Position numbers and translations under genes: made by a program. A stretch of 64,000 nt of DNA from assembly GCA_021797745.1 (NCBI GenBank), contig JAJZZD010000001.1, positions 128,468 to 192,467 of the forward strand. Direction: 5' to 3'. The notes below the pieces were generated by a model, which was not told the origin of the DNA, ran no database searches, and saw only the letters and a list, made by a program, of their open reading frames with translations. This document shows positions 11,373 to 36,879 of this stretch, in pieces (position 1 is the first letter of the stretch; every line of letters starts with the position of its first letter). The stretch comes from Candidatus Micrarchaeota archaeon. GTDB lineage: Archaea > Micrarchaeota > Micrarchaeia > Micrarchaeales > CABMGC01.

Positions 11373-11375
11373 TAT

Positions 11376-13865: not shown

Positions 13866-14002
13866 AACAGCCATTTCTTTAAGCGCCCTTAGCCCGAAAG
13901 TTCTGTATTCTTTCCAATCATATACTTTGGGAGCGACTGTTCTTTTTCATGGCTTTTTTTCATAGATTAACTGAACATGCGAATGCTGCATTATGCGGCA
14001 TA

Positions 14003-18596: not shown

Positions 18597-19730
18597 ATGA
18601 ATTTGGACATTAAACTACCTGCGGAGTTCGTTTCAAAAGCGGAGGTTTGCGATTATAAAACGCCCATAACTGAGATTATAGGAAAAATAAGGTCGCGGGG
18701 CTCAGTAGTGGTGATGAAGGACGGGGAATATTTCGGGGTGGTGAACGGAAAGACAATAGCCGAAGGCGGCTTCGCTAAGCTTGCAAAGGACTCTGTCGGA
18801 AAATTTGCCGACAGGGTCGCAGCTGCGGGAACAGATATCACCATCGAAAACGCAATAAGCAGCCTCTACAATTCCGAGATTGACGCGCTCCCGATCAGGG
18901 ACGGCAAGAAGATAATCGGGATAGTGAGAAGGGAAAAGATACTCGAATCGATTCTTTCGCTCCATGCCCTTTCGAAGGTAAGTGTTGAGGACATAATGGT
19001 TTCCCCAATAATAGACATAGACTCTAATGCCAATGTAGCTGCTGCAATCGCACTCATGCAGCAGAAGAAGATAAAGCGGCTCGTGGTAAACGACAGGGGA
19101 AAGCCTGCAGGCATAATAACGCAGAACGACATACTTTTCTCTCTCTCAAGGCCAGAGGAGAGGCTACCTGAGCTTAAGGTTGACGCGCATTCGCTGGAAA
19201 ATATTAGCGTCGGCAGCGTTGCTAACATGTACCTCAACACCGTATCTTATGACGAAAAAATAGATGCGGCGATAAAAATCTTCATAGAAAAAAAGGTAAG
19301 TTCAGTAGTTGCGATGAGAGGCGGCAGTGCAGTAGGGCTCATTACCGTTAGGGACGTACTCAAAGCAGCGATGCCAAAACCAGCAACAATTGATTCGCAA
19401 ATCATAATATCAGGATTGGACGACCGCACCAAGGAATTCGAAAATGAAATGAGGTCGCAAATAGGCAACTTCATAAGCAAGGCCGACAAGTTTTCGAGCC
19501 CAAGGCTAAAAATAGTAGAGATAAATGTTAAAAGAAAAGCCAGGGTGTATGAAGCTGCAGGCACTATGGAATTCGAAAGGGGCAACGACATACACGCGAA
19601 GGTTACGGCTTATAACACAGAGCAACTGGTGAGCGAGCTCATGGAAAAGCTTTACAAAATCGCTAAGGAAGAGAAGGAGGAAAAGATACACGACAAAAAA
19701 GAGGGCGGGAATGAGTATGAGGAAGAATAG
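18597..19730 (+). CDS. Four CBS motifs (two Bateman modules) fused to a C-terminal HPF/RaiA (ribosome hibernation factor)-like domain
   Basis: CBS-like segments such as IMVSPIIDIDSNANVAAAIALMQQKKIKRLVVNDRGKPAGIITQNDIL. The C-terminal ~100 aa (IIISGLDDRTKEFENEMRSQIGNFISKADKF...IVEINVKRK...GNDIHAKVTAYNTEQLVSELMEKLYKIAKEEKE) aligns by eye with the HPF/YfiA pattern. Confidence 0.7.
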   Translation: MNLDIKLPAEFVSKAEVCDYKTPITEIIGKIRSRGSVVVMKDGEYFGVVNGKTIAEGGFAKLAKDSVGKFADRVAAAGTDITIENAISSLYNSEIDALPIRDGKKIIGIVRREKILESILSLHALSKVSVEDIMVSPIIDIDSNANVAAAIALMQQKKIKRLVVNDRGKPAGIITQNDILFSLSRPEERLPELKVDAHSLENISVGSVANMYLNTVSYDEKIDAAIKIFIEKKVSSVVAMRGGSAVGLITVRDVLKAAMPKPATIDSQIIISGLDDRTKEFENEMRSQIGNFISKADKFSSPRLKIVEINVKRKARVYEAAGTMEFERGNDIHAKVTAYNTEQLVSELMEKLYKIAKEEKEEKIHDKKEGGNEYEEE

Positions 19731-20184
19731 GCTGTTGCAGTCCAGCTTCGAGCTGCTCATAACATTATCTTTCGGTCTGGCGCTCCTGCTTCCTTTAGTC
19801 ATAGTCGCGTTTCTTCAGCTGGCAGGCGCCAACGTGTCGCTTTCTTCTGTCGAGGCGCAGCAGGCAGCGAGCAAGCTTGCAAGCACGGCGACGCTGGTGG
19901 GAAGTGAAGGCGTGCCGGCAAAGCAGCTTGTGCAGATACAGGTTCCCTCGAGCGTGACTTCAATTTATGTCGGAAACGTGAACAACACAACAGGACACGA
20001 GGTTATTTTTGTCGTGAGCTCGCCTTCAGGTTCTAGTTACATAACCGCATACTCTCCGGTAAACATAAGTGGTTCGTTGCAGAGCATAGAGAATGCCGGC
20101 ACGTATCTGGTTAATGTCAGTGCAGTGTCAAGTTGTCCGAGCAATACGCTTATGCCGTGCGTTTACATGTCAGAACGCACATGA
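19711..20184 (+). CDS. Small pilin-like protein with a class III (type IV pilin-type) signal peptide
   Basis: N-terminus MSMRKNRLL-QSSFELLITLSFGLALLLPLVIVAF: charged leader, Q at +1, E at +5, hydrophobic helix. Remainder is Ser/Thr/Val-rich with N-x-S/T sequons. Overlaps the end of the upstream gene by 20 nt. Confidence 0.7.
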   Translation: MSMRKNRLLQSSFELLITLSFGLALLLPLVIVAFLQLAGANVSLSSVEAQQAASKLASTATLVGSEGVPAKQLVQIQVPSSVTSIYVGNVNNTTGHEVIFVVSSPSGSSYITAYSPVNISGSLQSIENAGTYLVNVSAVSSCPSNTLMPCVYMSERT

Positions 20185-20293
20185 CGAGCGCTTTGCGTTG
20201 TGCAGCATGCCGGCGCATCAGCGCCTGCCTGTGGACTGCAGATGTGGACTGAGACGCAAACTGTTGGCGTGTTAAAACGATGTGTGAAATTGC

Positions 20294-23200
20294 ATGAATA
20301 ACTTCGCTGAGAAACATGGATGCGTGAAGCAGCAGAAACGGCAGAAGCAGCAAATTGCCCTCGAATTTCTGATAGTGTTCGCTTTCGTGATGCTGATATT
20401 CACAATACTTTTCGTGCTGATAGCCAACCAAAGGAGCCTTGTCATAAACCAGCAGACTTTCACTGAGGCGCAGCTTATCGCACAGCAGGTATCTGCTGTG
20501 ATAAACACTGCCATACAATCAGGGAGCGGCTATGCCAGCTCCACAATACTCACCGGCTTTATAAACAGCATACCCTACTCGCTTTACGTTTCTAAAAGCG
20601 GTCTTGTGCTTGTCAATTTGACACTCGGCCACCAGGTAATAGAGGCAGTAGCCTATGTGCCTGCACACAGTATCGTAGCGAGCAACTCTATGCTAGTAAC
20701 AGGGTCAAACGTGCTGTATTCGATACCTACTTATAACAGCATAATGACTGTGCAGAACTACCTTGGGCATGTGTGCATAGATTACAACTGCGGCACATCG
20801 AATAATTTTGCGAGCAACATAACGCTCACTGAGCAGGCAGTACACGCTGCTGCTTTCAGCAACGTGAGCAGTTTCATAAGCACCCCTGGCTACAACGCAC
20901 TGCCCACTGGCTCGTCAGCAAGGTCGGTTTTCGCGTGGGTCTATTTCACAGGTGGAATTTCTAACTACACAGTGTTCAGCTACGGAACTGCGGCAACAGG
21001 CGAGATGCTGGATTTGCGCATCCACCACAGGACTCTCCAGGTCGGCACAGGCGCATCGTATTACTCAAGCCCTCTTAACATTTCCAACAATACCTGGACT
21101 TTTGTAGGGCTTACATACGCCGCTGGCTCCTCCAATGTGATAGTTTATGCCAATAGCAGCAGTTCCCAATTTTCGGTTTCAGGTCCGCTGAACACATTTG
21201 GCACAACTGCAGATATAGGCGCACAGGCAGGCTGCAAATGCCAAAACATGAAAGGCTACATAACCAACTTGCAGGTTTACGCTTACAACCTGTCCAAAAG
21301 CCAGGTGCAGAATCAGTACTCGGAAGGAATAGGCGCTTCGCCGCTTACTGGAAATCTTGTGGCATGGTATCCTCTGCAGGGCAACGCCAACGACTACAGC
21401 GGCTACGGAAACAACGGAACTGCACATGGTCCTGTGTTCTATCCTTCTGCAGTAGAATTTTTCGCAAAAGCAGCAAGCTTTTCAATGACTCCAGTGGAAA
21501 ATATCCCAATAGGCTTCGTTGCTTCCTCTGGCTCTTTCACAGATTCCAACACTGCAAACGCACGTGTGTATGTTAACTACACAAATTCAAACGGCGTAGC
21601 CACGGCATTTCTAACGCAAACAGGAAACAATGGACAGGCTTTAGTCACTGCAACCGCTTTCAACGGCAATTCGTCATTGACAGGCAACATCGCCGCGTTC
21701 TGGCCGCTCAACGCGCAGCAGGGCAACAGGCTTTACGATATATCCGGCAATAATGCCAACGGCGCCATAACCTATTCCTCATGGTCCTTGCCTGACTATG
21801 CTAGCTTTTTCGATGGCAGCTCAGCGTATGTGGAAATACCTACCACTTCGCAGCTCAACAGCACAACGTTTACAGTCAGCTTTTGGATGAATCCAAGACT
21901 GTATGGCAATGCGCAGGACAATCTAACGCTGCCAGCAGCAAGTTCTAGCTCAAGCGCAAGCGTTCTTGTGAGCCATACGTACAACAGCATGTGGTGGATG
22001 ACCTTCGGTGATAATAACGAGGTGTCAATGTATGTTGAAAATTCAATCACGCCTTCGCAGTGCTGCCAGTCGGTAATTGCTTACAACGCAGTGCCGCAGC
22101 TAAACAAGTGGTATATGGTAACCGGCATCGCTAATTCCACGTACATTAAAATATACATAAACGGAATGCTCGTGCAGGAGCAGCCGATAATCGGAAGCAT
22201 CCAGGAGGCTGGCAATAGCATTGTGGTAGGAACCGGTTTCGGGGCTCAGGCCACTTCATATGGATATTTCTCCGGCCAGATTTCAAATCTCCAAATTTAC
22301 GACACTGCGCTTACTTCCGCACAGGTTCAGGAGCTTTACAATTCCGGCATCGCCGGGTCTCCGGTTTCCGCCAGTTCCCTTTCAGGATGGTGGCCGCTCG
22401 ATGGCGACGCAAAGGACTACAGCGCGTATCTTAACAACGGCACAGTATTCGGAAACTTGACCAACCTGAATCTTGGCAATCTGCAGAGCACAAACGCAAA
22501 TTATACGTCTCTTCTCTCTGCCAGCTTCAACGGCGTTTCTGACTATAGCTACATATCCACTAATATTTCGCAGGTTAGCAACGCGTTGAGCGTAGCATTG
22601 TGGGTAAACGCAAGCAGCCTTTCAAAGATGACAAGCTCTGACGGCTATTCAATTTTCAACTCTGTAAGCTCTGGCAGCGGCAATCCAGTTTCATTCCTAC
22701 TGAACAATGGCGGCGGGCTTGGGACAAGTGCAGGCTCAGGCGATGAGGAGCTGTGCATAAGCGCAACGTGCTACAACGGTTACGGAATAAGCAACTCATC
22801 CTGGTACTTCCTTGCATTCACGCTGAACCGTGGCAACGCGAGCCTTTACGCAAACGGCGCTCCCCCTTACAACATATCCGTTCTCACTGGACCTTACTCA
22901 ATCAATTCGCTTTCTCTGGCTAAATCTGCGCTAGGAATAAGTGGATTCACAGGCAACATGTCGAATGTACAGATATATAGCAAGGCTCTCAGCCCGCAGC
23001 AGATTTACCGGATATATTCGAGCGGCATTTCCGGCATTCCTGTGAATTACTCTTCACAAAACACTAACCTTGTGGCATGGTATCCTCTGCAGGGCAACGC
23101 CAACGACATGAGTGCAAACATGAACAGCGGCATTCCCAGCAACGTAGCATATGCAAATACGGGATTCGTGAATAGCCATCTTGTAAACACGCAGGGAGGC

Positions 23201-23767
23201 TATGGGATAAACCTGAATGGCAACAGCAGCTACGCGTTTACCTCGACAAACGTGGCACTGGGCACAAACACAATGACGGCAGTCGCGTGGGTGTATCCTG
23301 AACAGATACGCGGGACAAGCGGACCCATAAAGATAATACTGAGTTCAAAACAGGCGCAGAACGGTGGTTTTGTCCTTGCGATACAAAACGGCAGCAGCAA
23401 TAATTACTTCTCTGCGAATTTCTCAGTGTATGCTAACGCCAAATGGAACAAGGTCACAACGCCCACGGCCTTGAATCCGTATGACGATTGGTACCAGATA
23501 GCAGGCGTGTACAACAACTCATATATAGGAATCTACATCAACGGCGTTCTCATGAACAAAACGGCTCTGACTGGCGCGATAAACCAGCCTGCCGGTGTAA
23601 CAAGCATAGGCGGCAATAACGGTAACACCACAGACTACTTTGCCGGAGCAATCGCAGATGTGCAGGTATATTCTGTTGCTCTGACGCAGCAGCAGCTTCT
23701 TCAGCTTTATGCGTATGGAATGCCTCCGTATGCGCGCGCAATAGCACAGTTTTCGGTGATAAATTGA
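20294..23767 (+). CDS. Giant pilin-signal-bearing surface protein with four LamG (concanavalin A-like, Laminin_G_3 type) domains
   Basis: N-terminus KQ-QIALEFLIVFAFVMLIFTILFVLI (Q+1, E+5). Four domain-end signatures (G.I(T/S)N(L/V)Q(V/I)Y...LS..Q...(L)Y..G). Domain-start modules of the type WYPLQGNANDYSGYGNNGT. About 30 N-x-S/T sequons by hand count. Confidence 0.85.
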   Translation: MNNFAEKHGCVKQQKRQKQQIALEFLIVFAFVMLIFTILFVLIANQRSLVINQQTFTEAQLIAQQVSAVINTAIQSGSGYASSTILTGFINSIPYSLYVSKSGLVLVNLTLGHQVIEAVAYVPAHSIVASNSMLVTGSNVLYSIPTYNSIMTVQNYLGHVCIDYNCGTSNNFASNITLTEQAVHAAAFSNVSSFISTPGYNALPTGSSARSVFAWVYFTGGISNYTVFSYGTAATGEMLDLRIHHRTLQVGTGASYYSSPLNISNNTWTFVGLTYAAGSSNVIVYANSSSSQFSVSGPLNTFGTTADIGAQAGCKCQNMKGYITNLQVYAYNLSKSQVQNQYSEGIGASPLTGNLVAWYPLQGNANDYSGYGNNGTAHGPVFYPSAVEFFAKAASFSMTPVENIPIGFVASSGSFTDSNTANARVYVNYTNSNGVATAFLTQTGNNGQALVTATAFNGNSSLTGNIAAFWPLNAQQGNRLYDISGNNANGAITYSSWSLPDYASFFDGSSAYVEIPTTSQLNSTTFTVSFWMNPRLYGNAQDNLTLPAASSSSSASVLVSHTYNSMWWMTFGDNNEVSMYVENSITPSQCCQSVIAYNAVPQLNKWYMVTGIANSTYIKIYINGMLVQEQPIIGSIQEAGNSIVVGTGFGAQATSYGYFSGQISNLQIYDTALTSAQVQELYNSGIAGSPVSASSLSGWWPLDGDAKDYSAYLNNGTVFGNLTNLNLGNLQSTNANYTSLLSASFNGVSDYSYISTNISQVSNALSVALWVNASSLSKMTSSDGYSIFNSVSSGSGNPVSFLLNNGGGLGTSAGSGDEELCISATCYNGYGISNSSWYFLAFTLNRGNASLYANGAPPYNISVLTGPYSINSLSLAKSALGISGFTGNMSNVQIYSKALSPQQIYRIYSSGISGIPVNYSSQNTNLVAWYPLQGNANDMSANMNSGIPSNVAYANTGFVNSHLVNTQGGYGINLNGNSSYAFTSTNVALGTNTMTAVAWVYPEQIRGTSGPIKIILSSKQAQNGGFVLAIQNGSSNNYFSANFSVYANAKWNKVTTPTALNPYDDWYQIAGVYNNSYIGIYINGVLMNKTALTGAINQPAGVTSIGGNNGNTTDYFAGAIADVQVYSVALTQQQLLQLYAYGMPPYARAIAQFSVIN
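21361..21424 (+). repeat. 64 bp segment identical to 29020..29083 (encodes WYPLQGNANDYSGYGNNGTA)
   Basis: Base-by-base comparison: ggcatggtatcctctgcagggcaacgccaacgactacagcggctacggaaacaacggaactgca occurs at both sites. Flanking sequence diverges immediately. Confidence 0.9.
23069..23107 (+). repeat. 39 bp segment identical to 21356..21394 (third copy of the WYPLQGNAND module)
   Basis: cttgtggcatggtatcctctgcagggcaacgccaacgac is present at both positions. Confidence 0.9.
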
Positions 23768-23781
23768 ATGCGGCTGACTCG

Positions 23782-24321
23782 ATGAAACTTCAGTTCTGGT
23801 CTTTCGACGTAGTGTTTTCTATGGTCGTTTTCAGCGGAGCGCTCATGCTGCTTACGCTCGTGTGGTACAACCAGAGCAACCAGTTCTCGTCGACATACGG
23901 GCTTGAGGTGTTAAGCATACAGGCGCAGCTGCTCAGCCTCCAGAACCGCATAATGATGCAAGGTTCGCCTTACAACTGGTATTCCGTACTAAATGCAGCT
24001 GACAAAGCCACGTGGAGCAACATAAGCATAGGAATAGGCACAGGCATAGGCAACAACATTTCTACAAGCAGACTTGATGCGCTCATGTCAATAGCGTCGT
24101 TCAATTACACATCTTACCAGAATTCGAAGCAGATGCTAGGCATAGGGTACGACTATCTGCTAAACATAACCGGTACAAATATACACATCCTTATAGGGAG
24201 AAATCCTGCTGCTTTCAACGCCACTTCAGTGCAGACTGCAAGCATGCCAATATTCATAGAGGGAAATCCCGCGAATATGAAAATAGAACTGTGGACAAAC
24301 ACCACGTTAGGCGTTAGCTGA
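23782..24321 (+). CDS. Small pilin-like protein (N-terminal hydrophobic class III-like signal)
   Basis: MK-LQFWSFDVVFSMVVFSGALMLLTLVW followed by a polar domain with sequons. Tightly packed after the 1157 aa gene. ATG 23782 preferred over TTG 23764. Confidence 0.6.
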   Translation: MKLQFWSFDVVFSMVVFSGALMLLTLVWYNQSNQFSSTYGLEVLSIQAQLLSLQNRIMMQGSPYNWYSVLNAADKATWSNISIGIGTGIGNNISTSRLDALMSIASFNYTSYQNSKQMLGIGYDYLLNITGTNIHILIGRNPAAFNATSVQTASMPIFIEGNPANMKIELWTNTTLGVS

Positions 24322-24426
24322 CATTCAGCGTTAAAAAGATAAAAAAGAAAAAGCAAAAAAAGAGAAATAAAAAGATGGAAAAATAAAACAAAACGGCGGT
24401 AAAAAGGAAATCACGATGATGTAATC

Positions 24427-26604
24427 ATGGGAAACATAAAACAAATGAAAGGATTGGTTTTCACCCTTGACGCAATGTTCGCGTTCATAGTGGTAAGCGT
24501 AGGAATAACGATACTGCTTTTCCTAAACTTCTTTTCACAGGTGCCTGGAAGCTCGCGCTACTCGCAGGTATCATTGACGACCAGCTACCTGCTTTCCACT
24601 GAAATAATGCTGACGCAGAACGCAAGTTCTGTAGCTGCGCAGGTAGTCAGTCAGAACCTCGGTGCCAACGAGTCATGGCCGCAGTTCATGGGCAATTCGC
24701 AGAGGCAGGGCAATAATGGCTACGCTCCGTCTCTGCCGTCGGTTTCCTACATATTCAACGCGACGCACAACATACTCACCAACGTTGCGGCGGATTATGG
24801 AAACCTGTATTTTGCCACGCAAAACGCAGTGTTCGCTGTGAATGCCACAAACAACGAAACAGTATGGACTTCGAATAAGGTGACGTCGCCTTACAACTCA
24901 GTTGCGGTTTACCATGGCGACGTATTCATAGCAAATTCAGTGGATCTATTTGCGCTTAATTCCTACAACGGTAACATGGTATGGTCGACTTCGCTAAGCA
25001 GTAATCCCACCTCCCAGCTGCTTGTGTACCAGAATCAGATCGTGCTCGGCGAGGGCAGCAACTCGCTGTATTCATTCTATGCCGGCAACGGAACTTTGGC
25101 ATGGAGCTTTCCATTTAATTCCCCGCCTGTGTTCGCGGCCACTGCAGACGGGAATCTTGCAGTCGTCAACTCATCAGGCTATCTTTTCATGGTAGCAGTT
25201 CCTTCTAACACGTTTTCAGGGAGTAACATAAACGTGCTCTGGAGCAAGCCGCTCGCCACAGCAGGAATAACCACGCAGAACGGGAAGATATTCTCTGCCA
25301 GCGGCAACACTGTGGAGATAACCTACATAAATGAAACAAACCTGCTGGCTCAAAATCTGGGCAGCGGCAACATAATTACTGGTGTAGCATTCGGATACGG
25401 AGATGCAGTATATCAAACCGAACAAAGCGTTTCTGTGCTTAACTTCTCTGGCAAGTTCAAGTACAACTTCTCTGCACCGGCGTATTTCGGCTCTTACATA
25501 GCCAACGCCATACCTGTAGTGTCGAAAAAAGGGATATACACAATATGGTCAAACGGTATTGCAATGCAGAACATCACAAACGGCGATTTGGAATGGTTCA
25601 CTAATATTCCAACTGCGCAGTACAGCGCGCTCTCCAGTTATCTCACTCTGGCATACGGAAGGCTCTATGCTGTTGCAGGCACAAGGCTTATAGCTTATGG
25701 CGCGTGCAACGCAAAAGACACAGAGCAACTGCTTCCTGCGCTCGCAGAATTCTACACCAACTTAGAAGGCGGCTGCGGCCAGTCACTGCTTTACAGCATA
25801 GGTGCGGGCTCGAATTACAGTCTGTCTATTAACGGCACATTCGCGCCGTCCATGCACGTTGCGAAGCTCAATGCAAGCGCATACAACAACAGCGCGTTAG
25901 GCACTAGCGGCTTTTTCCTGTCTAACTCATCGCTCAGCAATCTCAGCTCGTTCACGATAACCGCATGGGTGGATCCTAATGCATACAGCACCAAGCAATA
26001 CACGAGCGACATATACACAATAGGCCCTTTGTCAGGAAACTGGGCGCTCAATTTCTCAATGGGCGCTTCCGGTCAGCTCGCAATAGACGACTACAACGGC
26101 GTTACGTTGAAAAATTTCACCAGCAACATGATAATTCCGCTCAACAAATGGTCGTTCGTTGCTGTAACGTTTAACAACTCAAAGTTCGTGCTCTACGTTA
26201 ACAACAAACAGGCATCTGCGCCTGGCCAGGTTGAAACTGGAAATCACGAGAGTTACATTGGCCTTTACTACCGCGGCTATATCGCCAACATGCAGATATA
26301 CAACACGTCGCTCGGACCTGCACAGATGCAAGACGCCTACCTGTCGGGCATGGCAGGCTTGCCTGTTTCCTATGCGCACCTCATAGGATGGTACCCTCTG
26401 ATGGGCGATGCCAACGACTACAGCGGCTCACACAACACAGGCTATCCTTACCACGCGTCGTGGCCAAATTCAACATATGTGCCTTCGGGACTTTCCAACG
26501 CGCAGCAGGTGAGCAGTTCAAGTGCTGTGATTCCGGTAAGAAACTACAGTGGCAACAAAACAGTGACGAGGCTTAAGAACGTAGGCATTTTGTCCTGGGA
26601 TTGA
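24427..26604 (+). CDS. Pilin-signal-bearing surface protein: PQQ-like beta-propeller repeats plus one LamG domain plus an unpaired C-terminal LamG-start module
   Basis: N-terminus MKG-LVFTLDAMFAFIVVSVGITILLFL. Repeated A.N..NG..VW(S/T) propeller blades (ALNSYNGNMVWS, FYAGNGTLAWS, AVNATNNETVWT, QNITNGDLEWF). LamG end signature GYIANMQIYNTSLGPAQMQDAY, then GWYPLMGDANDYSGSHNTG followed by only about 50 aa. Confidence 0.8.
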   Translation: MGNIKQMKGLVFTLDAMFAFIVVSVGITILLFLNFFSQVPGSSRYSQVSLTTSYLLSTEIMLTQNASSVAAQVVSQNLGANESWPQFMGNSQRQGNNGYAPSLPSVSYIFNATHNILTNVAADYGNLYFATQNAVFAVNATNNETVWTSNKVTSPYNSVAVYHGDVFIANSVDLFALNSYNGNMVWSTSLSSNPTSQLLVYQNQIVLGEGSNSLYSFYAGNGTLAWSFPFNSPPVFAATADGNLAVVNSSGYLFMVAVPSNTFSGSNINVLWSKPLATAGITTQNGKIFSASGNTVEITYINETNLLAQNLGSGNIITGVAFGYGDAVYQTEQSVSVLNFSGKFKYNFSAPAYFGSYIANAIPVVSKKGIYTIWSNGIAMQNITNGDLEWFTNIPTAQYSALSSYLTLAYGRLYAVAGTRLIAYGACNAKDTEQLLPALAEFYTNLEGGCGQSLLYSIGAGSNYSLSINGTFAPSMHVAKLNASAYNNSALGTSGFFLSNSSLSNLSSFTITAWVDPNAYSTKQYTSDIYTIGPLSGNWALNFSMGASGQLAIDDYNGVTLKNFTSNMIIPLNKWSFVAVTFNNSKFVLYVNNKQASAPGQVETGNHESYIGLYYRGYIANMQIYNTSLGPAQMQDAYLSGMAGLPVSYAHLIGWYPLMGDANDYSGSHNTGYPYHASWPNSTYVPSGLSNAQQVSSSSAVIPVRNYSGNKTVTRLKNVGILSWD

Positions 26605-26605
26605 T

Positions 26606-29197: not shown

Positions 29198-29249
29198 CGC
29201 AGTCCTAAATTCCAGCAGCAGCCAAAAGCAGCCAGAATGGCAAAAAAAG

Positions 29250-30239
29250 TTAAACTCCTCCGAGAGAGGCGAATATGCCGCTTATCACCGCTGATGCGAC
29301 TAAGAATGTGCTTACGGCAACGAGTATGAATATTGGCATTAGTCTGATCCCCTTGACTACTGAACCGCTCGATATCGCGCTCACTATGAATGACGCAAAC
29401 GTGGCTATCATAATCACAGAAGTTAAGGCGAAATCATAGTACGCAGAGGTAGTTATCTGGGGAGGGTTTGGCCTGAGGAACGACACGCCTATAGTGGGCA
29501 GGCCTCCCGGGCTGGATTTGAGTATCTGCGTCCATACTGAATTTGTCACTCCTATCATCTGTGACGTGAGCGCGTAAAGAACTGGCGCGCCTATTATCGC
29601 CGCGAAAGCTATGAATATAGTGTAAAGAAACAATTGCCCTGATATTTCTTTCTGCACCATCTGCTGGTTTCTCAGGTCTTTTGCTATGCCGTTAAGCAAG
29701 TCAGTCATGCCTCCGCCGTATTGTATGCCTTCTATTATCATGCGTATCGTATGCTGCAATTGATTCGACCTGTATCTCTTCCCCAGGTCTACGAACGCCT
29801 GCTGCAATGTTATGCCAGTGTAAAGTTCCTTGTCTATGTCCTTTATGTCGTTTCCAAAATAGCCGAATTCAGGCCTTACTGCCAATACTACTGACTTGTC
29901 TATTGCTATTCCGCTCCTTATGTTTGCCGCAACTATCTGCAGGTAGTCAGGAAGCACACTTTCCACGAAATTTTTCCTCTGCTCTATCTTGAGTTCAAGT
30001 ACTGCATAAAGGAGCAGCTCATAAATTCCCGTAGCTGCAAAGCCGGCCAAAGCAGCGATTCCCGTGTTGTATCCTTCAGTTACCAGCAGCGCAGGCACTA
30101 AGACGAAAACGAGTATTCCGCCGAATATCACAAGAGTCAGGTATCTTTCAAGCGTCATCCTGATACCGGAGAGCTTCAGCTCCTCCCTGAGTATATTCGC
30201 GACGTTTCTCGAAACCAATTTTTCCAGGGATAAAGCCAT
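29250..30239 (-). CDS. Type II secretion system F-domain membrane protein (FlaJ/TadC-like pilus platform subunit, single T2SSF domain)
   Basis: One cytoplasmic helical T2SSF-like domain (LQQAFVDLGKRYRSNQLQHTIRMIIEGIQYGGGMTDLLNGIAKDL) flanked by TM helices. Adjacent to a second single-domain paralog and to the ATPase. Confidence 0.8.
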   Translation of the reverse strand: MALSLEKLVSRNVANILREELKLSGIRMTLERYLTLVIFGGILVFVLVPALLVTEGYNTGIAALAGFAATGIYELLLYAVLELKIEQRKNFVESVLPDYLQIVAANIRSGIAIDKSVVLAVRPEFGYFGNDIKDIDKELYTGITLQQAFVDLGKRYRSNQLQHTIRMIIEGIQYGGGMTDLLNGIAKDLRNQQMVQKEISGQLFLYTIFIAFAAIIGAPVLYALTSQMIGVTNSVWTQILKSSPGGLPTIGVSFLRPNPPQITTSAYYDFALTSVIMIATFASFIVSAISSGSVVKGIRLMPIFILVAVSTFLVASAVISGIFASLGGV

Positions 30240-30243
30240 TTAA

Positions 30244-31419
30244 TCACATTGCGAACGAAGGTCTGGAGCTCCTGAGTATGTTGAGGAACAAAATCTGCAC
30301 GAACAGCATGCCCACTATCATCATCAAAAGCGTAGTAGGTGTAACTGTTATTATGTTTATGAATGTGGTTATTATTGCAGCTACTGCTATGCCCATGCTG
30401 GGGAATATGACCCCGAAAAGCATGTAAAACATTGCGAGGGCATTGAGCCTCTGTCCGTATCTCCTCAGCTCTATCACGCGCTCCTGCATTACCTCGTCCA
30501 CAACTTCCTGCAGAGCCCCAACAATGTCTGCGCCCGCTTTTATGCTGACGCTAGCCTGAAGCATTATTCTTTTGAACGTTTTCGACTTGCTCTGAGCGCT
30601 CACCCGGTCTATTGCATCGCTTATTGGCGTACCAAGCTCCACAAGGTCCACAATTTTTTTGAATTCGTCGCTGGCTGCGCCGTAGCCCGTGCTTACTGAT
30701 GTTATAGCGTTGAATAGAGGCACTCCAGAACGCATACCTATCACTATGTCCCTTGTGGCGAAAAGTATGTCCTTTTCGATTTCCTTGCCTTCTGCTTTGA
30801 CTTTTTCCAACGGATAAGTTATAAATTTCTGGAAGAATGCGATCCGGAGGGCATAGCCAAAGGCAATGCCTATTACTATTCCTGCTATCACGTTGCCGAA
30901 TCTTATCAGCAACGCAGCTACCGCGACTGCTAAGACTGCTGCAACTATTATCGAATTTATGAGCATCTTCTTCACGAAATCGTACGGGCTTATCTTCATG
31001 CCCGATTCTATGAGAGCGTCGTCAAGGCCCTTGTGCTTTTCAAGCTCCTTGGCGATGTAGATTTGTATCATTCCAGGCTTCTTGAATCTCTGCTCTCCCT
31101 GACCGGCAGATTTTGGCTGCGGCTCCTTATGGCCGAAAGCGGCTTTCGGAATTGCAGAATATTCGGGTATTTCCTCATGCTCCGCTCCTCTGCCTTCTGC
31201 CGGCCTTGCTGCAGGGTTGGCTGTGATTTCAGGAGAGTACATATGCTGGCCAGGCTGTGCCTGTTGTGCAGCTTGCTGCGCAGCCTGTGGCTGCTCGTTA
31301 GAATATATCGGCTTTGACCTTATCTTGAAAAAAAGAAATTTCCTGCTCTTGGTGAATCCGGTTATACTTGCACTCTTGTTTGTTTCATTGCTTTTTTTCC
31401 GGAATAATTTCATAAACAT
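30244..31419 (-). CDS. Type II secretion system F-domain membrane protein (FlaJ/TadB-like) with a ~130 aa Gln/Ala/Pro-rich N-terminal extension
   Basis: T2SSF-like region GMRSGVPLFNAITSVSTGYGAASDEFKKIVDLVELGTPISDAIDRV..IKAGADIVGALQEV plus TM helices. N-terminal PQAAQQAAQQAQPGQ low complexity. ATG 31419 or 31413 preferred over TTG 31434. Confidence 0.8.
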   Translation of the reverse strand: MFMKLFRKKSNETNKSASITGFTKSRKFLFFKIRSKPIYSNEQPQAAQQAAQQAQPGQHMYSPEITANPAARPAEGRGAEHEEIPEYSAIPKAAFGHKEPQPKSAGQGEQRFKKPGMIQIYIAKELEKHKGLDDALIESGMKISPYDFVKKMLINSIIVAAVLAVAVAALLIRFGNVIAGIVIGIAFGYALRIAFFQKFITYPLEKVKAEGKEIEKDILFATRDIVIGMRSGVPLFNAITSVSTGYGAASDEFKKIVDLVELGTPISDAIDRVSAQSKSKTFKRIMLQASVSIKAGADIVGALQEVVDEVMQERVIELRRYGQRLNALAMFYMLFGVIFPSMGIAVAAIITTFINIITVTPTTLLMMIVGMLFVQILFLNILRSSRPSFAM

Positions 31420-31441
31420 CACTGTCAAATTCAACCCGATT

Positions 31442-32089
31442 TCACTGGGCTATGCCAAGCTGAAGCGCAACTGCCATGAGCAGCTGGTTCCTTGCGTTTA
31501 CCTGGTCCTGCGGCGCATTGGTCTTCTTCTGCATGATTTTCAAGAGTCCTGCTATCTCGTCATTTATTACATTAAGCTCGTCTTCGCCGAACGCGTTCTC
31601 GTCAAGCCCTTCGCTTATCTTCTGCAAGTCGTTTATTTGGTCCTGGAGTGATAGCTTCGGGAGCACTAGCCCTGAGGTGTTTACCTTTTCAGAAAATTTT
31701 TCAATATTGCCTTCAAACTCCTCGCCTATGTTCCTGAACCTCTGCTCGAGCTTTCCCGCAGCCTTTTCAGTTTCTTTCCTGTATTCCTCGTTCCTTATGA
31801 CCCTCTTTATTCCCGGAGCCGGCTTCTGCGCCTCTTTTTCTTTTCCCGCATGTGCAGCCTGCGTCTGAATCTCTGCCTGCTGTTTTTCCTTTGCCTCCTT
31901 TGCCGCCTCCGGTTTAACGCGAACTCTTATCCCTTCTGCTTTTTCCACGTCTTCTAATACGTCGCCATATGCCTGTTTTTTGACTTCCTGCGCTTTCTCA
32001 AGCGCATCGTTTCCCACACTTAGCTCCCCGACTCTGCCGCCTTCTTCTGATTCAGTTATCAGTCTGATTGCTTCTTGGTAAGTTGTCAA
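31442..32089 (-). CDS. Hypothetical highly charged (Glu/Lys-rich) soluble protein of the pilus operon
   Basis: ORF packed between the ATPase and platform genes (16 and 22 nt gaps). No TM helix and no recognisable motif. Confidence 0.6.
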   Translation of the reverse strand: MTTYQEAIRLITESEEGGRVGELSVGNDALEKAQEVKKQAYGDVLEDVEKAEGIRVRVKPEAAKEAKEKQQAEIQTQAAHAGKEKEAQKPAPGIKRVIRNEEYRKETEKAAGKLEQRFRNIGEEFEGNIEKFSEKVNTSGLVLPKLSLQDQINDLQKISEGLDENAFGEDELNVINDEIAGLLKIMQKKTNAPQDQVNARNQLLMAVALQLGIAQ

Positions 32090-32105
32090 TCACGGCACCC
32101 ATGCA

Positions 32106-33593
32106 TCATAATATGTCGTTAGAGAACTTAACGTCCTCTTCCGCCAATTCGAGTATCTTTTCCCTGTTTTTGTAGTAGTTAACTACCACCAATCCTGCGT
32201 CATTCACGTCGTATATCTTGTTCTTCACCATCCAGCTCAGAATCTTGGATTTTTTAGCTAGCTCGTCTGCTATTTCGTTCTTACTGTATCCGCCATAAAG
32301 GATTATTGTGTCCAACAGCCTCTTGAAATCGCCATTTTTGACGAATGTGTCAGTACTTACATCCCACCTGTATATCGAGTTCACGTTGCCGTCGTTAAGT
32401 ATTTCGCCAAAGTCAAGAAGCCTCCTTATGCCAAGGCGCCTGTGCCTTAAAAGCGAGACGACGCTTCCGAACGCATTCAGCATTATCTTGGGCGTGTCTA
32501 TCGGAGGATTGGTCATTCTTATTATAGTATCCTCTGCGTTGTCGGCATGCACTGTGCCGTACACTGCATGGCCGGTGTGTATTGCCTCGAGGAGCGTCTC
32601 GGCGTCAGGCTTTGTCCTTACCTCTCCTATCAGCACTATGTCCGGCCTTTGCCTAAGCGCATTTATCATCAAATCATACAGCTTTATTTCTCCCTTGCCT
32701 TCAGGGTTCGGCTGTCTGGTAAGCATTGGCACCCAGTGCAGGAAATCCGGCAGCGTCAGCTCCCTGGTTTCCTCGACAGAAATTATTCTCCTTGTCGCAG
32801 GCATGAAAATGCTCATTGCGTTCAAAAAGCTCGTCTTCCCGCTCGCAGTGCCTCCTGATATGAGTATGCTTATCTCGTTCTCTATGCACAACCATACGAG
32901 CGAAGCTATTTCTGGCGATATCGTTCCATTGCCTATCATTGCAGGCATTGTCCACGGGTTCTTTCCGAACTTTCTTATAGTAAGAGTGTTGCCCTTCTGC
33001 GAAATAGGATAAAGTGTGGCATTGACCCTTGAGCCGTCAGGCAGTTCAGCGTCCATCAGCGGCGAAAGGTTTGTTATCTGCCTGCCTACTCTCCTGCCTA
33101 TCTGCTCTGCGTCGTTGTAAATGGCGTTCTCATTCTGAAGCCTTATGTTGGTCCTGCACCAGCCATAGACCTTGTGATACACCCACGCATTTTCGCTTGA
33201 GTTGTTTATCACTACCTCTTCCAGGTTTTCGTCTGCAAGCGGAGCTTCGAGCTCACCAAGGCCGAGCATGACGTTTACCACGTATGCTATTATGACTTTT
33301 TTCGAGTCCTTGGCAGTTCCAGGCAGATACCTGTCTATTAGTATGTTCGAGGCTTCTGAATATCTGTCAGTGAGCTCCCCTATGTATTCTTTGCTCTCTA
33401 TCTTCATTATGTCTATTGGGACCATCGATATTAGCTCCTGCCGTAGGGACTGGAGCAATATTTTCGTTGCATCGCCCAAGCCTGGTATCAAAATGTAGTA
33501 GATGGGCGTGAACCCGCCCTCGTCCTTTATTGTTATGTTTACCGATAGCCCGTGTGCATCGAGATTGTATGTTTCCAATATTTTTTCAGCCAT
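32106..33593 (-). CDS. FlaI/TadA/VirB11-type secretion ATPase (type IV pilus assembly ATPase)
   Basis: Walker A GGTASGKTS, Asp box region RIISVEETRELTL, Walker B DIVLIGEVR, His box HTGHAVYGTVHA. ATG 33593 (MAEKIL) preferred over 33623. Confidence 0.9.
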   Translation of the reverse strand: MAEKILETYNLDAHGLSVNITIKDEGGFTPIYYILIPGLGDATKILLQSLRQELISMVPIDIMKIESKEYIGELTDRYSEASNILIDRYLPGTAKDSKKVIIAYVVNVMLGLGELEAPLADENLEEVVINNSSENAWVYHKVYGWCRTNIRLQNENAIYNDAEQIGRRVGRQITNLSPLMDAELPDGSRVNATLYPISQKGNTLTIRKFGKNPWTMPAMIGNGTISPEIASLVWLCIENEISILISGGTASGKTSFLNAMSIFMPATRRIISVEETRELTLPDFLHWVPMLTRQPNPEGKGEIKLYDLMINALRQRPDIVLIGEVRTKPDAETLLEAIHTGHAVYGTVHADNAEDTIIRMTNPPIDTPKIMLNAFGSVVSLLRHRRLGIRRLLDFGEILNDGNVNSIYRWDVSTDTFVKNGDFKRLLDTIILYGGYSKNEIADELAKKSKILSWMVKNKIYDVNDAGLVVVNYYKNREKILELAEEDVKFSNDIL

Positions 33594-33713
33594 GCAAACG
33601 CCGTCCGATTTATGAATCTGCAATTTACGCTTTATCCCTTTACGATTGATTCAATGCCTTCTCTAATTTTTAATACCTTCCCGCATCTGGCTTAGAGCGC
33701 ACGTGCGCCATGC

Positions 33714-34901
33714 CTATTTTCCTTTCGGCTTTTTGATTCCTTTGATATCTTTGCCTAACTTCGAAATGGCATTTCTGCTAGATGCTGCCTTGTTTGCTGC
33801 GGCTTCTACTGCGGCGCTCTTTTCAGGCAGCCTGTCTGCGCTGATGACGCTTGCGCTTTTCAGTATGCTTTTTATCTCGCCCAGCTCTTTTACTATCTCA
33901 TCCCTTTCCTGCTGTACTGCCTGTATGCTGCTTCGCATTTCTCTTATCCTTGAATCAAGTTCTGCATATCCGCCTAGTTTTCCGCGCACGTTTTCAATTG
34001 CCGCTTTCAATGCCGCGATCTGGCCCTTTGCGGCGTCATACATCTGGCGAGTTTCCTGGACAGTTTTCGAAACTGTGTCAAGCATGCTCGCCCTGTATTT
34101 CAAAAGCTCTTTTTTCGTATTCTCTGCATTGGCTTTGTATTCTTTGGAAATCCTGTCATAGTCCTCGACTTTCCTTGACTGCTCGCTGAGTTCCCTACTG
34201 AGCGCTGTCTCTTCATTCCTTATATTTCTCACAATTTCGTCGAAGGTTTCTTTCTGCTCCTTTTGCTGTTCGTAGAACATCCTGTTCAGCACTGTGAGCC
34301 TCTCGTGCGCGTCGCTGAGCATAGCCTGCAAATCATTCATTCTGCTCTTGGCATCCACTAGCGGTCCGTAGCCCTCTATCTGCTCAGCGCGTTTTTCAAT
34401 CTCTTCAAGCTCCGGGCTAACCTTCTGAAGCATGTCTTCCTCTGTTTTTTTTATGCCTACAAGCTTCGCATCGGTTTTTTCCGCTGCTGTTTCATACGCG
34501 CTGAGTTTGTCAAGCATCTCCTTTATCGCGCCAGCCTTTGACTTGAATTCTGATTCTGTAATTACCGCAGTTTTTTTGTAGCTCTCTATCGCCGCATCAA
34601 GTTCTTTTATGCTTTCTTCCTGCGCTTTAATGTCTTCTTCAAGTGTTACCTTTTTCATCTCTGCTGTCTTCTTTGCACTTTCCGATATTTCGCCGCTGCC
34701 ACCCGATAAGCTCACATACATCTTACCTACTTTGTAGGCGACTTTTATCACGTCTGCCTTTTCCAGTATGCCCACCCACGATTCCACGTTGCCTTCTTCG
34801 ACTCCGAGCTTGCTGGCAAGCTCAGTGGCCTCTGTTTCCCCATGCTCCTTCAGGTAGTTGACGAGGTTGTCTATGCCTGTTGTTATGACCTGGTCTGCCA
34901 T
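33714..34901 (-). CDS. Winged-helix-like N-terminal domain fused to a ~330 aa coiled-coil protein (pilus locus accessory)
   Basis: N-terminal 60 aa (ITTGIDNLVNYLKEHGETEATELASKLGVEEGNVESWVGILEKADVIKVAYKVGKMYV) is paralogous to the adjacent 77 aa protein. The rest is heptad-like and Glu/Lys/Ala-rich. Confidence 0.7.
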   Translation of the reverse strand: MADQVITTGIDNLVNYLKEHGETEATELASKLGVEEGNVESWVGILEKADVIKVAYKVGKMYVSLSGGSGEISESAKKTAEMKKVTLEEDIKAQEESIKELDAAIESYKKTAVITESEFKSKAGAIKEMLDKLSAYETAAEKTDAKLVGIKKTEEDMLQKVSPELEEIEKRAEQIEGYGPLVDAKSRMNDLQAMLSDAHERLTVLNRMFYEQQKEQKETFDEIVRNIRNEETALSRELSEQSRKVEDYDRISKEYKANAENTKKELLKYRASMLDTVSKTVQETRQMYDAAKGQIAALKAAIENVRGKLGGYAELDSRIREMRSSIQAVQQERDEIVKELGEIKSILKSASVISADRLPEKSAAVEAAANKAASSRNAISKLGKDIKGIKKPKGK

Positions 34902-34983
34902 GAATTTCGTTATAAACTACTTTTAAAAGATTTAATACCCTTTTGTATTGGTAACTGCGTTTAGGACGCGCATATCTATCACG

Positions 34984-35217
34984 TCACTGTCGCTCTCCGG
35001 CTTTGCCATTTTCAAGAACTCGCACGTACATCCTGCCCATGCGGTAGCTCACTCCCACAACTCCTGCCTTTTCCAGGGCGCCGACCCACTCTTCAATGTG
35101 CTTTTCATCCGACTTGACCGCTTTGGCCAATTCCGCAGACTCTGTCTCCCCGTGTCTTTTAAGGTAGGCGACCAGCTCGTCGATGCTTGTGGTTACAGTT
35201 TCACTGTCCATATTCAC
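34984..35217 (-). CDS. Stand-alone winged-helix-like small protein, paralog of the N-terminus of 33714..34901
   Basis: VTTSIDELVAYLKRHGETESAELAKAVKSDEKHIEEWVGALEKAGVVGVSYRMGRMYV aligns position-for-position with the neighbour (roughly half the residues identical by eye). Confidence 0.65.
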   Translation of the reverse strand: MNMDSETVTTSIDELVAYLKRHGETESAELAKAVKSDEKHIEEWVGALEKAGVVGVSYRMGRMYVRVLENGKAGERQ

Positions 35218-35332
35218 ACGTTAATTTATCTGTCCATTATGATTTCTTGGTTTAGTTTCCTGTTGCTCCTGTTTTCCTTTCATTTTCAGTCTGTTCAAGC
35301 CACACATGGTTCGCATAACACTACCGTTTACG

Positions 35333-35827
35333 TCATTGTGCCGACACTGCAAGTGTGCCATTATCTACGCTCTGCGTTGCCGTCGCTTCGTCTATTGTGT
35401 TAACTACTAAATATCCGTCGAAATAGTCGCCAGCAGATCCGGAGAATACGGTGTTCTGACCGGTATAGCAGCTGACTGCAAACGTGTAGTTCGAGCCCAC
35501 CGCCATAAGCACGCCTCCACCTCCGTTCAGCGTCTCTACGTTAGTGAGCGTGCCCTGCTCGTTGCATGCTATGCCTATGACGTTGACTGGCATATTGATG
35601 CTTTCGAGGTTCACTATAAGCAGCCCGTTGGTTGCGAACGTCAGGCCTTTGCACAGGAAATTGTTGAGCAGGCACGTGCTCTTTGCTCCGAATGCATTCG
35701 TGTTGAAAAGCCCGAGCGCGTAGAGTGCGGCAAGCACAACTCCTATTATCAGGAAAGCCCAGCCATAAGTTATGAGAAATTCCATTGCCGATTGGGCTTT
35801 GGATTGAGATTTTGAGTTCGCGTACAT
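35333..35827 (-). CDS. Archaeal type IV pilin (class III signal peptide), candidate major pilin of the locus
   Basis: MYANSKSQSKA-QSAMEFLITYGWAFLIIGVVLAALYALGLF is the classic archaeal pilin N-terminus (Q+1, E+5, TYGWA). An AT-rich TATA-like element lies about 29 nt upstream of ATG 35827, so this start is preferred over 35875. Confidence 0.85.
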   Translation of the reverse strand: MYANSKSQSKAQSAMEFLITYGWAFLIIGVVLAALYALGLFNTNAFGAKSTCLLNNFLCKGLTFATNGLLIVNLESINMPVNVIGIACNEQGTLTNVETLNGGGGVLMAVGSNYTFAVSCYTGQNTVFSGSAGDYFDGYLVVNTIDEATATQSVDNGTLAVSAQ

Positions 35828-36144
35828 GTTCTCGTTTATAAATGCAAAGGGAAATTTAATAACGTAAGTAGCCATTTAACAATTGTACTTGAAGAACACA
35901 ACAAAAAATGCCAAGTTTGCGGAAACTTGAAGCATATGCCTCCGTGCGAAAGAACATACGGAAGCGAGAATGCAGTTTTGTCATCAGGCAGCGGCATAAC
36001 TGCATAAATAAATATATTGCACAAAGCAATTGACATAGGTCAGGCAGGAAATAACGTTTCCTGAGATCTAAAGATGCTACTGAATGACTGTCAATGAACG
36101 AAAATGAACGAAGAAGTCCCCGACTCATTCAAGGTGGTAGTATG

Positions 36145-36879
36145 TCACAGTTTTCCGACTATGAAACCAGCAATTTCGTCACCTATCGCCGCCTCCGGCA
36201 TTATGACGCGCTTAGTGCCTGCGCGCTCGAGTTTAGGGATGTCATCGAGCGTTTTTATCCTAGAAATGACGCTGCACTTTTCGTTCTGCTTCTTTGCAGC
36301 TATTGATACGAACGCGTTGCTCACGTCGTTCTCATAAAGCGAGAATACGACAAACGCACTGTCTATCCTGCCTTTCTTAAGCGAGTCGTCGTATGTCGCA
36401 TCCTGATTCAGTGCTAAAAGCCCTTCGTGCAGCGCTTTCTTCACCTTTCTGCGCTCATTATCCATTAATACGGCCTGAATCTTGTTCTCCTTGAGCTTCC
36501 TCGCAAGCCTTATGCTTATCCCGTTTATCGGCGTTATTATGGCGTGATTTTTAAGCCTCTTTGCCTTCTGCTTCGCCACCCACTGGTCCACGTCGATGCT
36601 GCTAAGCACCTCGTAGAAGAACGTTACCACTATAATCGTAAGCGCTATGTTGCCTACCAGGCCCAGCACGAAAGCGGTAAACACGAGCGGATTGTCGGTA
36701 TACGCGAACGCAGCCGTAGGCGCGAAGGTCGCGCCTATGATGTTGGTTATGCTCAATATCACTGCAACGAACATATTGTGCGTAGCTATCTCGATGAGCG
36801 CAACGGATATTATGAATATTGCCACTATCGCCAGCGCAGTTATGGTGTGTATCGTATGAAACATTGCCATTCTTGTCAC
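36145..36879 (-). CDS. 2-TM channel-like membrane protein with a C-terminal RCK/TrkA-N domain; no canonical K+ selectivity filter
   Basis: TM1, then a pore-helix-like segment (SITNIIGATFAP where TVGYGD would be expected), then TM2, then a Rossmann-like RCK region (NHAIITPINGISIRLARKLKENKIQAVLMD). ATGA overlap with the upstream gene. Confidence 0.65.
   Translation of the reverse strand: MTRMAMFHTIHTITALAIVAIFIISVALIEIATHNMFVAVILSITNIIGATFAPTAAFAYTDNPLVFTAFVLGLVGNIALTIIVVTFFYEVLSSIDVDQWVAKQKAKRLKNHAIITPINGISIRLARKLKENKIQAVLMDNERRKVKKALHEGLLALNQDATYDDSLKKGRIDSAFVVFSLYENDVSNAFVSIAAKKQNEKCSVISRIKTLDDIPKLERAGTKRVIMPEAAIGDEIAGFIVGKL

Follow-up and report, generated by a model that had tools for sequence, protein, structure and literature searches.

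Putative pilin-like carriers of LamG and β-propeller modules in a probable System 1 type IV filament locus of Candidatus Micrarchaeota

The archaeal type IV filament systems known as System 1 correspond to clade 1 of Makarova 2016 (PMC4858521) and to the "Epd-like" systems of Denise 2019, the sister group of bacterial Tad (PMC6668835). The clade 1 model comprises two TadC genes, at least five minor pilins and a pair of large, adhesin-like proteins; these bear DUF2341, which is also reported in PilY adhesins (Makarova et al., PMC4858521). A fission-type split of the platform protein is diagnostic of Epd-like and Tad systems (Denise et al., PMC6668835). System 1, with its split platform, occurs in methanogens, Thermococcales and DPANN, and the epd cluster encodes a class III protein with a sugar-binding domain (2026 preprint, bioRxiv 10.64898/2026.04.22.720090). 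The Q+1/E+5 pair, that is, Gln and Glu at the first and fifth positions after the cleavage site, is the hallmark of Epd pilins processed by the prepilin peptidase EppA, whose substrates also carry Gly at −1 (PMC3875500). In the micrarchaeon Mia14, the locus MIA14_0170-0177, with an ATPase, a gap, two TadC proteins and a secreted component, was assigned to the methanococcal group; part of the expanded LamG repertoire of Mia14 is linked to type IV pilus loci, and its single FlaK-like gene lies away from the locus (Golyshina et al. 2017, PMC5498576). The present analysis concerns a 64-kb stretch of contig JAJZZD010000001.1 (assembly GCA_021797745.1), hereafter the window. Its content had been said to fit a small-genome episymbiotic archaeon, and the source, a Candidatus Micrarchaeota, is indeed a small-genome DPANN archaeon. 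Twelve open reading frames (ORFs), labelled A to L, form two convergent blocks in it, A–E on the forward and F–L on the reverse strand (Table 1). The reading favored here, and held to be probable, is that the region is a System 1/Epd-Tad-like type IV filament locus whose LamG and propeller proteins are modular minor pilins that would bind host or matrix from the filament tip. It is built on the gene content, a conserved gene cassette and a modular protein architecture, all three of which are directly observed.

The machinery of the locus is of a known kind. The ATPase, I, matches Pfam T2SSE (E 2.2e-33) and, in the PDB, Archaeoglobus fulgidus GspE (3.6e-65), FlaI (3e-58) and CpaF (3e-50), and each of the two platform proteins carries one T2SSF domain above the Pfam cut-off (F, 9.1e-12; G, 3.9e-15). 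G aligns to ArlJ positions 6–248 of 555 and F to ArlJ positions 188–464 of 465 (NCBIfam), and the two show no pairwise similarity to each other, which makes this a fission-type split of the platform. The first-pass annotation of the window had described a type IV pilus-like locus with an ATPase, two one-domain platform proteins and, in J and K, two winged helix-turn-helix (wHTH) paralogs. These calls stand (J and K are 51% identical over 73 amino acids, aa), the ATPase, the platform and the pilin-type N-termini all being present, and the ORFs of both blocks lie where they had been placed. Its further statement that the gene combination matches no characterized locus does not survive, since a split platform, Q+1/E+5 signals, many minor pilins and large adhesin-like proteins are the features of System 1, which is known from DPANN. 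As in the Epd system of M. maripaludis, two adjacent one-T2SSF platform genes stand beside the ATPase gene, pilins bear Q+1/E+5, and at least five minor pilin-like genes are accompanied by large adhesin-like accessory proteins. The order ATPase, gap, TadC, TadC is that of MIA14_0170-0177. Sugar-binding or ConA-like domains in these accessory proteins are common to both, but the adhesin modules of the window are Laminin_G_3 arrays and a PQQ-type propeller, not DUF2341. Unlike in Epd, a wHTH/coiled-coil protein precedes the ATPase. Further differences from Epd are that no EppA, FleN/MinD or FlaH-type ATPase was found among the 12 locus genes or the flanking ORFs scanned, that leaders end in A, L or Q and not in Gly, and that L, the sole canonical pilin of the locus, measures about 153 aa when mature, against ~60-70 aa in System 1 (~60 aa in Epd/Flp). 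Because of these latter differences, and because the ATPase is unplaced phylogenetically, membership of the locus in System 1 (Epd/Tad-like) is rated as probable only. A linkage of LamG genes to pilus genes has likewise been reported before, in Mia14. Three points were not found in that literature: that the LamG and propeller proteins may themselves be pilin-like, that the order A–E is conserved across DPANN, and that the attached modules appear to be swapped between phyla.

The chief distinguishing feature of the locus is the architecture of its three large forward-strand products. Pfam Laminin_G_3 matches four stretches of B (E 2.4e-63, 213 bits), one of D (1.7e-15, 58 bits) and two of E (2.1e-22, 80 bits), and PQQ_2 matches D (3.6e-12, 46.9 bits), each against a cut-off of 27.6 bits; the seven LamG domains and the propeller of the first-pass annotation are thereby confirmed. 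The propeller, which lies N-terminal of the LamG domain in D, matches PQQ_2 and Beta-prop_ACSF4 only, and the Pfam scan of the locus proteins revealed no PilY1-type domain. The best NCBIfam match of B is TafC (8.5e-26, below cut-off). What precedes these modules is pilin-like. Profile–profile comparison by hhalign equates B residues 5–156 with the whole of a 135-aa stand-alone pilin from other DPANN (probability 98.4%, E 6e-15, 132 columns, full coverage), and confines the homology between the D carrier and the vWA proteins found at its position elsewhere to the first ~70 residues (89.5%, E 2e-6). For this reason B, D and E of Micrarchaeota are read, from their sequences, as conserved pilin-like carriers onto which lineage-specific C-terminal modules have apparently been grafted. 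With the N-terminal domain of E, a full HMMER scan of 1.84 billion representatives returned 173 proteins only, nearly all of which match from residue ~5–20, and most of which are 850–1400 aa long. A paralogy of A and B was also considered; its hhalign support is weak (52–71%), so it is not claimed.

The carriers belong to a gene cassette whose distribution extends well beyond Micrarchaeota. A search with the ATPase against one genome per species returned 80 loci, of which the closest, at 60–74% identity, are all in Candidatus Micrarchaeota metagenome-assembled genomes, and those at 40–49% identity in Aenigmatarchaeota, Iainarchaeota, Woesearchaeota, Nanohaloarchaea and Altiarchaeota. Iterated local searches with hidden Markov models showed that in distant loci of the first four of these phyla homologs of A, the B N-terminus, C, the E N-terminal domain, the wHTH protein, I, G, F and an L-type pilin adjoin one another. 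The cassette order in distant loci is always A-B-C-D-E, and many form a single co-directional operon, A-B-C-D-E-wHTH-ATPase-platform-platform-pilin. Locus L037 exemplifies this arrangement on one strand between 4255 and 13951, with A at 4255–4671, a B-like gene at 4613–5056, C at 5049–5555, a large protein at 5539–8319, an E-like gene at 8304–9311, the wHTH gene at 9315–9998, the ATPase at 9986–11512, then G, F and a pilin at 13469–13951; in locus L070 the cassette is divergent from the ATPase. Homologs of A adjoin the pilus ATPase in 25 distant DPANN loci, C homologs were found in 49 loci, a wHTH gene lies directly upstream of the ATPase across DPANN (74 loci), and an L-type pilin follows the platform genes in 23 distant loci. 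Outside Micrarchaeota the carriers take simpler or different forms. B-like proteins are stand-alone pilins of 130–150 aa, E-like proteins are 315–440 aa long and have no LamG, and the D position is held by a protein of 620–1170 aa with the N-terminus [KR][GA]↓xxF[ST]x[DE] (↓, predicted cleavage site), which bears a vWA domain in 7 of the 8 scanned and, in one of them (locus L053), LVIVD repeats too. Pilins resembling B, C and A with C-terminal extensions (359–605 aa) that match no Pfam family were also seen, at L053 813–2417, L049 2942–4048 and L041 1341–2417 (reverse strand). Module grafting onto the cassette seems widespread, and some of the modules are undescribed.

Within Micrarchaeota, locus synteny was examined by BLASTP of the window proteins against six-frame ORFs. 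All 28 loci that reach past F show J-I-H-G-F followed by a convergent block, which reads E-D-C-B(-A) in 23 and C-B-A in 5. The two operons had been proposed to be linked, on pain of refutation should they prove unlinked in relatives; they are linked in every one of these informative loci, and since the cassette adjoins the ATPase in other phyla as well, that refutation fails. The highly charged protein H, which matches no Pfam family, appeared in 38 loci in profile searches, only one of them (L067, Micrarchaeales) outside the close set, and is specific to Micrarchaeota. In most Micrarchaeota loci J is the immediate neighbor of the TrkA-like genes, the K77 and L180 genes being missing from between them; the pair seems to have been relocated or inserted in a lineage-specific event. 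The earlier description of L as a textbook pilin is accurate for its signal, a canonical Q+1/E+5 that passes the strict rule given below, although most Micrarchaeota do not keep the gene at this place. Named orthologs of E are annotated publicly as "LamG domain-containing protein" and those of A as "hypothetical protein", so that the link between LamG proteins and pilus is missed. Directly upstream of the pilus genes lie three consecutive TrkA_N/RCK-type genes (36145–38062, reverse strand), two of them with membrane segments, whose position is kept in most of the Micrarchaeota loci inspected.

The N-termini quoted in the first-pass annotation were recovered as RLL↓QSSFELL in A, KQ↓QIALEFL in B, KL↓QFWSFD in C, KG↓LVFTLD in D, KA↓QLMTLI in E and KA↓QSAMEF in L. 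A, B and L combine Q+1 with E+5, preceded at −1 by L, Q and A, respectively, and never in the window by G. The A family (35 clusters, mean identity 68%) is invariant from the Gln onward, QSSFELL.T...GL, behind a basic leader that varies from 2 to 21 aa; among 35 orthologs, residue −1 is Leu 18 times and Ala 13 times, with one instance each of G, S, C and I. Homologs of A number 218 clusters at E ≤ 0.001, and identity among the 120 clusters listed is 60–73%; no other protein of the locus is better conserved, and the ATPase is about equal. In the C family (24 sequences from several phyla; consensus KG↓QxxSxD), Q+1 and D+6 are the sole columns invariant across phyla. Orthologs of D read MK[GA]↓[IV][IV]FT[LM]D and those of E K[GA]↓[QF]LMT, the latter without an acidic residue at +5/+6. 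The motif earlier noted as common to C and D is indeed shared; it is better read as an acidic +6 after a K[GAL] cleavage site. A strict FlaFind-like rule, [KR][GAS], passes D, E and L, and fails A, B and C at −1 only, where they have L or Q. Class III processing of the locus proteins is likely from these patterns, and if real it calls for a peptidase that tolerates Leu at −1.

In composition, six of the proteins fit an extracellular location. A–E and L contain ~3% Lys plus Arg and 2.2–3.8 N-x-S/T sequons per 100 aa, and are compositionally extracellular; the cytoplasmic I, J and H have 11–17% Lys plus Arg and are not sequon-rich (H: 15% Lys plus Arg, 19% Asp plus Glu). A, C and L, like H, match no Pfam family. 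The AlphaFold2 (AF2) model of A, with a mean predicted local distance difference test score (pLDDT) of 87.9, is a lollipop, in which a helix at residues 4–64 carries a six-strand beta domain; two C-terminal cysteines are invariant among its 35 orthologs. In the AF2 model of E (pLDDT 78.5), a helix at 25–99 leads into a globular domain and two LamG jelly rolls. Residues 1–24 of this model score below 50, and the true start is likely M25. Foldseek matched the E model to pentraxins and laminin LG domains (E 1e-9) and, among others, to Streptococcus sanguinis PilC (7oa8). A weak DUF7287 match occurs in 6 of 24 members of the C family.

From these elements the following course of assembly may be sketched. 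The ATPase I, the split platform G plus F and the wHTH/coiled-coil protein J make up the machine in cytoplasm and membrane. A–E and L would all be cut just before the invariant Q (I/V in D) by a prepilin peptidase whose gene lies elsewhere. Like bacterial minor pilins, A–E would next join by their N-terminal helices to form a tip or priming complex, beneath which a major pilin would polymerize. This subunit may be of the L type, or possibly A, whose conservation equals that of the ATPase. E has no acidic residue at +5/+6, a trait of the cap subunits GspK and PilX, and is the leading candidate for an outermost cap. Seven LamG domains and a propeller, predicted to be heavily N-glycosylated, would in this way be presented distally, where the lectin-like modules may bind glycans or surface proteins of a host (Thermoplasmatales) or the matrix of a biofilm. 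The proposal draws by analogy on bacterial minor-pilin/PilY1 priming complexes, on PilB and PilC of S. sanguinis (PMC8179133) and on TafC (bioRxiv 10.1101/2023.03.06.531322). That the LamG proteins are tip or minor subunits devoted to attachment had been suggested by the first-pass annotation. Conserved pilin-type N-termini, linked operons and the small-pilin module of B make filament display the best reading of them; display itself and binding are what we infer.

Each of these analogies has its limits. Among the modular pilins of S. sanguinis, PilB carries a vWA and PilC a lectin module, and a tip location was proposed (Raynaud et al. 2021, PMC8179133); PF13385/ConA-like lectin is among the commonest modules of modular pilins and is also present in ultrasmall bacteria of the Candidate Phyla Radiation (CPR) (PMC8179133). 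The window proteins resemble these in joining a complete N-terminal pilin module, evident in B, to a C-terminal module that is not pilus-specific. They differ in having an archaeal Q+1 class III signal in place of the bacterial G↓F(M)xxxE motif of IPR012902, up to four LamG domains per protein, and three modular subunits in one cassette. As with PilY1/PilC and TadG, a large propeller and/or vWA protein is found together with minor pilins, and the vWA domain at the D position of other DPANN, joined in one scanned protein by LVIVD repeats, recalls PilY1 and TadG; priming and tip adhesion would be the common role. Unlike the C-terminal propeller of PilY1, that of D is of the PQQ_2 type and precedes the LamG domain. 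D also has a pilin-like N-terminus of its own; PilY1, in contrast, leaves the cell by the Sec route and is docked onto minor pilins. TafC of the haloarchaeal Tat-fimbriae combines a subunit-like N-domain with a C-terminal LamG and is modelled at the tip, at ~1 per 100 major subunits (bioRxiv 10.1101/2023.03.06.531322); it thus offers an archaeal minor subunit of the same general layout as B. In contrast to the window locus, TafC is Tat-secreted, cleaved by signal peptidase I and joined by donor-strand exchange, in a filament that is not of type IV. On the archaeal side, the apparent grafting in Micrarchaeota corresponds to the "modular pilins" of Bacteria and to tip adhesins of the PilY1/TadG type.

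A separate feature of the LamG genes bears on how they vary. A 64-nucleotide (nt) tract occurs in six copies in B, D and E, at the starts of LamG units. Two copies, one in B and one at the 3′ end of E, are identical within genes that are otherwise diverged, and the remaining copies have diverged as well. This identity points to a recent exchange among LamG units, by gene conversion or recombination. A strain comparison is afforded by GCA_027363415.1 (locus L081), which is 99.1% identical to window positions 18931–38134. Hypervariability of the LamG genes at the strain level was considered and rejected, because D of L081 shows 0 differences and B 5.5 per kb, while H shows 28 per kb.

Several observations weigh against a tip-displayed adhesin of System 1. 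The filament, the presence of B, D and E in it, and their ligands are all predictions from sequence. The ATPase scores similarly against FlaI, A. fulgidus GspE and CpaF (NCBIfam, PDB), which makes its placement in clade 1 or clade 2 ambiguous. Foldseek of the A model against the PDB retrieved no solved pilin (best E 0.078), so that "pilin fold" is used here as an architectural statement only, meaning a long N-terminal helix followed by a beta domain; a profile search of the PDB with the C family found nothing. Residue −1 of A, B and C, Leu or Gln, departs from the G/A/S rule known for PibD, FlaK and EppA. None of the six N-termini in the window gives a significant match to Pfam Class_IIIsignal (PF04021), which leaves motif logic and conservation as the basis of the class III call; among distant homologs, A-like and B-like proteins match it weakly (E 0.002–0.013). 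In agreement with the first-pass annotation, the multi-transmembrane ORFs of the window include no A24-family prepilin peptidase, neither a GxGD motif nor a Peptidase_A24 match having been found among them. Mere collinearity of the genomes could account for some of the synteny within Micrarchaeota, because the three TrkA-like genes adjoining J upstream are equally conserved. Finally, between the two strains with 99.1% identity, changes are not concentrated in the LamG genes. Four of these points, namely the non-canonical −1 residues, the lack of a peptidase in the window, the non-significant PF04021 and the equally syntenic TrkA genes, would also suit LamG and propeller proteins that are ordinary surface proteins, held by an uncleaved signal-anchor and independent of any pilus, their adjacency being inherited gene order. 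LamG genes have moreover expanded generally in Micrarchaeota, with 18 copies of arCOG07813 in Mia14 (PMC5498576). Such an arrangement is nonetheless quite improbable, as B, D and E have N-terminal modules whose homologs in other phyla are encoded beside ATPase and platform genes, often within one operon, conservation in A and C begins exactly at the predicted cleavage site, and class-III-like N-termini appear nowhere else in the 64 kb.

If the locus does act on class III substrates, the product need not be a long filament. A short bindosome- or pseudopilus-like surface structure, whose class III LamG proteins capture glycans or nutrients at the host interface, would resemble the Sulfolobus bindosome (Bas), in which class-III-signal proteins with ligand-binding domains, sugar-binding proteins among them, are served by a type IV pilus-like ATPase and platform. 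Every secreted protein of the locus bears a class-III-like signal, and lectin-like domains are present in several; the ATPase gives a sub-threshold NCBIfam match to BasE (6.6e-41), most Micrarchaeota lack an L-type major pilin in this locus, and A is conserved like machinery, which would be unusual for an exposed major pilin. We consider this unlikely, since a canonical L-type pilin accompanies the same machinery in the window and in 23 distant DPANN loci, LamG domains are not the solute-binding proteins that are the substrates of Bas, and Bas, whose platform is one two-domain protein from a single gene, falls into another, crenarchaeal clade (PMC4858521). The filament could instead serve mainly for the uptake of DNA or other macromolecules from the host, with LamG doing no more than docking the pilus. 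Epd pilus genes are reportedly among those required for natural transformation of M. maripaludis. Golyshina et al., for their part, speculate that type IV pili may mediate the exchange of DNA (PMC5498576). There is little to recommend such a function here: the Pfam scan of the locus brought up no DNA-binding or competence proteins, and there is no second (retraction) ATPase. It would in any case be compatible with an adhesin and not exclusive of one.

Returning to the modular minor pilins, a broader proposal may be put forward, though only tentatively. Conceivably, A–E form a universal DPANN tip scaffold on which swapped host-recognition modules set the host range, with recombination among LamG units reshuffling specificity and a peptidase that tolerates Leu at −1 processing the subunits. 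The modules would be, again speculatively, LamG arrays and a PQQ-type propeller in Micrarchaeota, and vWA (with LVIVD in one protein) in Iainarchaeota and Aenigmatarchaeota. For the question of how DPANN episymbionts recognize their hosts, the locus offers three concrete and testable attachment candidates, B, D and E. Their pilin-like N-termini tie them to a filament machine, and their lectin, propeller or vWA modules differ between phyla. The "modular pilin" principle would thereby extend from Bacteria, including the ultrasmall CPR, to Archaea. Co-cultures of Micrarchaeota with Thermoplasmatales exist, Mia14 with Cuniculiplasma and A_DKE, in which the predicted attachment can be tested.

Table 1. 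Coordinates of the twelve ORFs and of the two identical 64-nt tracts in the window
Feature	Coordinates	Strand	Length	Description
A	19711-20184	+	157 aa	Small pilin-like protein; likely start 19717
B	20294-23767	+	1157 aa	Putative modular pilin: class-III-like signal (KQ↓QIALEF), small-pilin module ~aa 1-156, four LamG
C	23764-24321	+	185 aa	Conserved small class-III-signal protein; likely start 23782 (M7, MKL↓QFWSFD)
D	24427-26604	+	725 aa	Class-III-like carrier (MKG↓LVFTLD), PQQ-type beta-propeller, one LamG
E	26606-29197	+	863 aa	Signal MKA↓QLMT (start M25), long helix, alpha/beta domain (aa 25-391), two LamG
F	29250-30239	-	329 aa	Platform protein, C-terminal-half type, one T2SSF
G	30244-31434	-	396 aa	Platform protein, N-terminal-half type, one T2SSF
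H	31442-32089	-	215 aa	Highly charged cytoplasmic protein, between ATPase and platform genes
I	32106-33623	-	505 aa	Secretion ATPase, VirB11/FlaI/TadA superfamily
J	33714-34901	-	395 aa	wHTH + coiled-coil protein
K	34984-35217	-	77 aa	Stand-alone wHTH, paralog of J N-terminus
L	35333-35875	-	180 aa	Canonical pilin SKA↓QSAMEF; likely start 35827 (M17); candidate major subunit
64-nt tract copy 1	21361-21424	+		Encodes AWYPLQGNANDYSGYGNNGTA at start of LamG unit, in B
64-nt tract copy 2	29020-29083	+		At 3' end of E, 100% identical to 21361-21424

The idea of a genomic island was set aside: the locus is set among housekeeping genes, which include 2-oxoacid dehydrogenase E2/E3, a DEAD helicase, DinB, UDG, FtsZ, Rad50 and the TrkA-like genes, and its GC content is only slightly raised, at 0.47–0.49 against 0.39–0.46 in most flanking bins. 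Elsewhere in the window, an 871-aa ORF at 4967–7582 (forward strand) matches no Pfam family at E ≤ 1e-4, and the ORFs at 9437–10381 and 48385–49353 (both reverse strand) are likewise without Pfam matches. About 3 kb upstream of the pilus locus, a 512-aa polytopic ORF (15338–16876, reverse strand) matches Exosortase_EpsH (3.9e-11) and is archaeosortase-like, which hints at a second route for anchoring surface proteins. An Rfam tRNA match at 14217–14323 (reverse strand), which ARAGORN does not report, spans 107 nt against a 71-position model, and the tRNA is probably intron-containing; the tRNA-Cys that ARAGORN places at 18425–18496 is below the Rfam gathering score. On the far side of the locus, the closely related strain of GCA_027363415.1 diverges completely, from its position 19201 and window position 38134 onward, ~240 nt before a tRNA-Gln (38377–38449). 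Beyond this point L081 has an alpha/beta-hydrolase gene, in place of the tRNA and M50 peptidase genes that follow in the window; the divergence is either a strain rearrangement, an integration at the tRNA or an assembly break.

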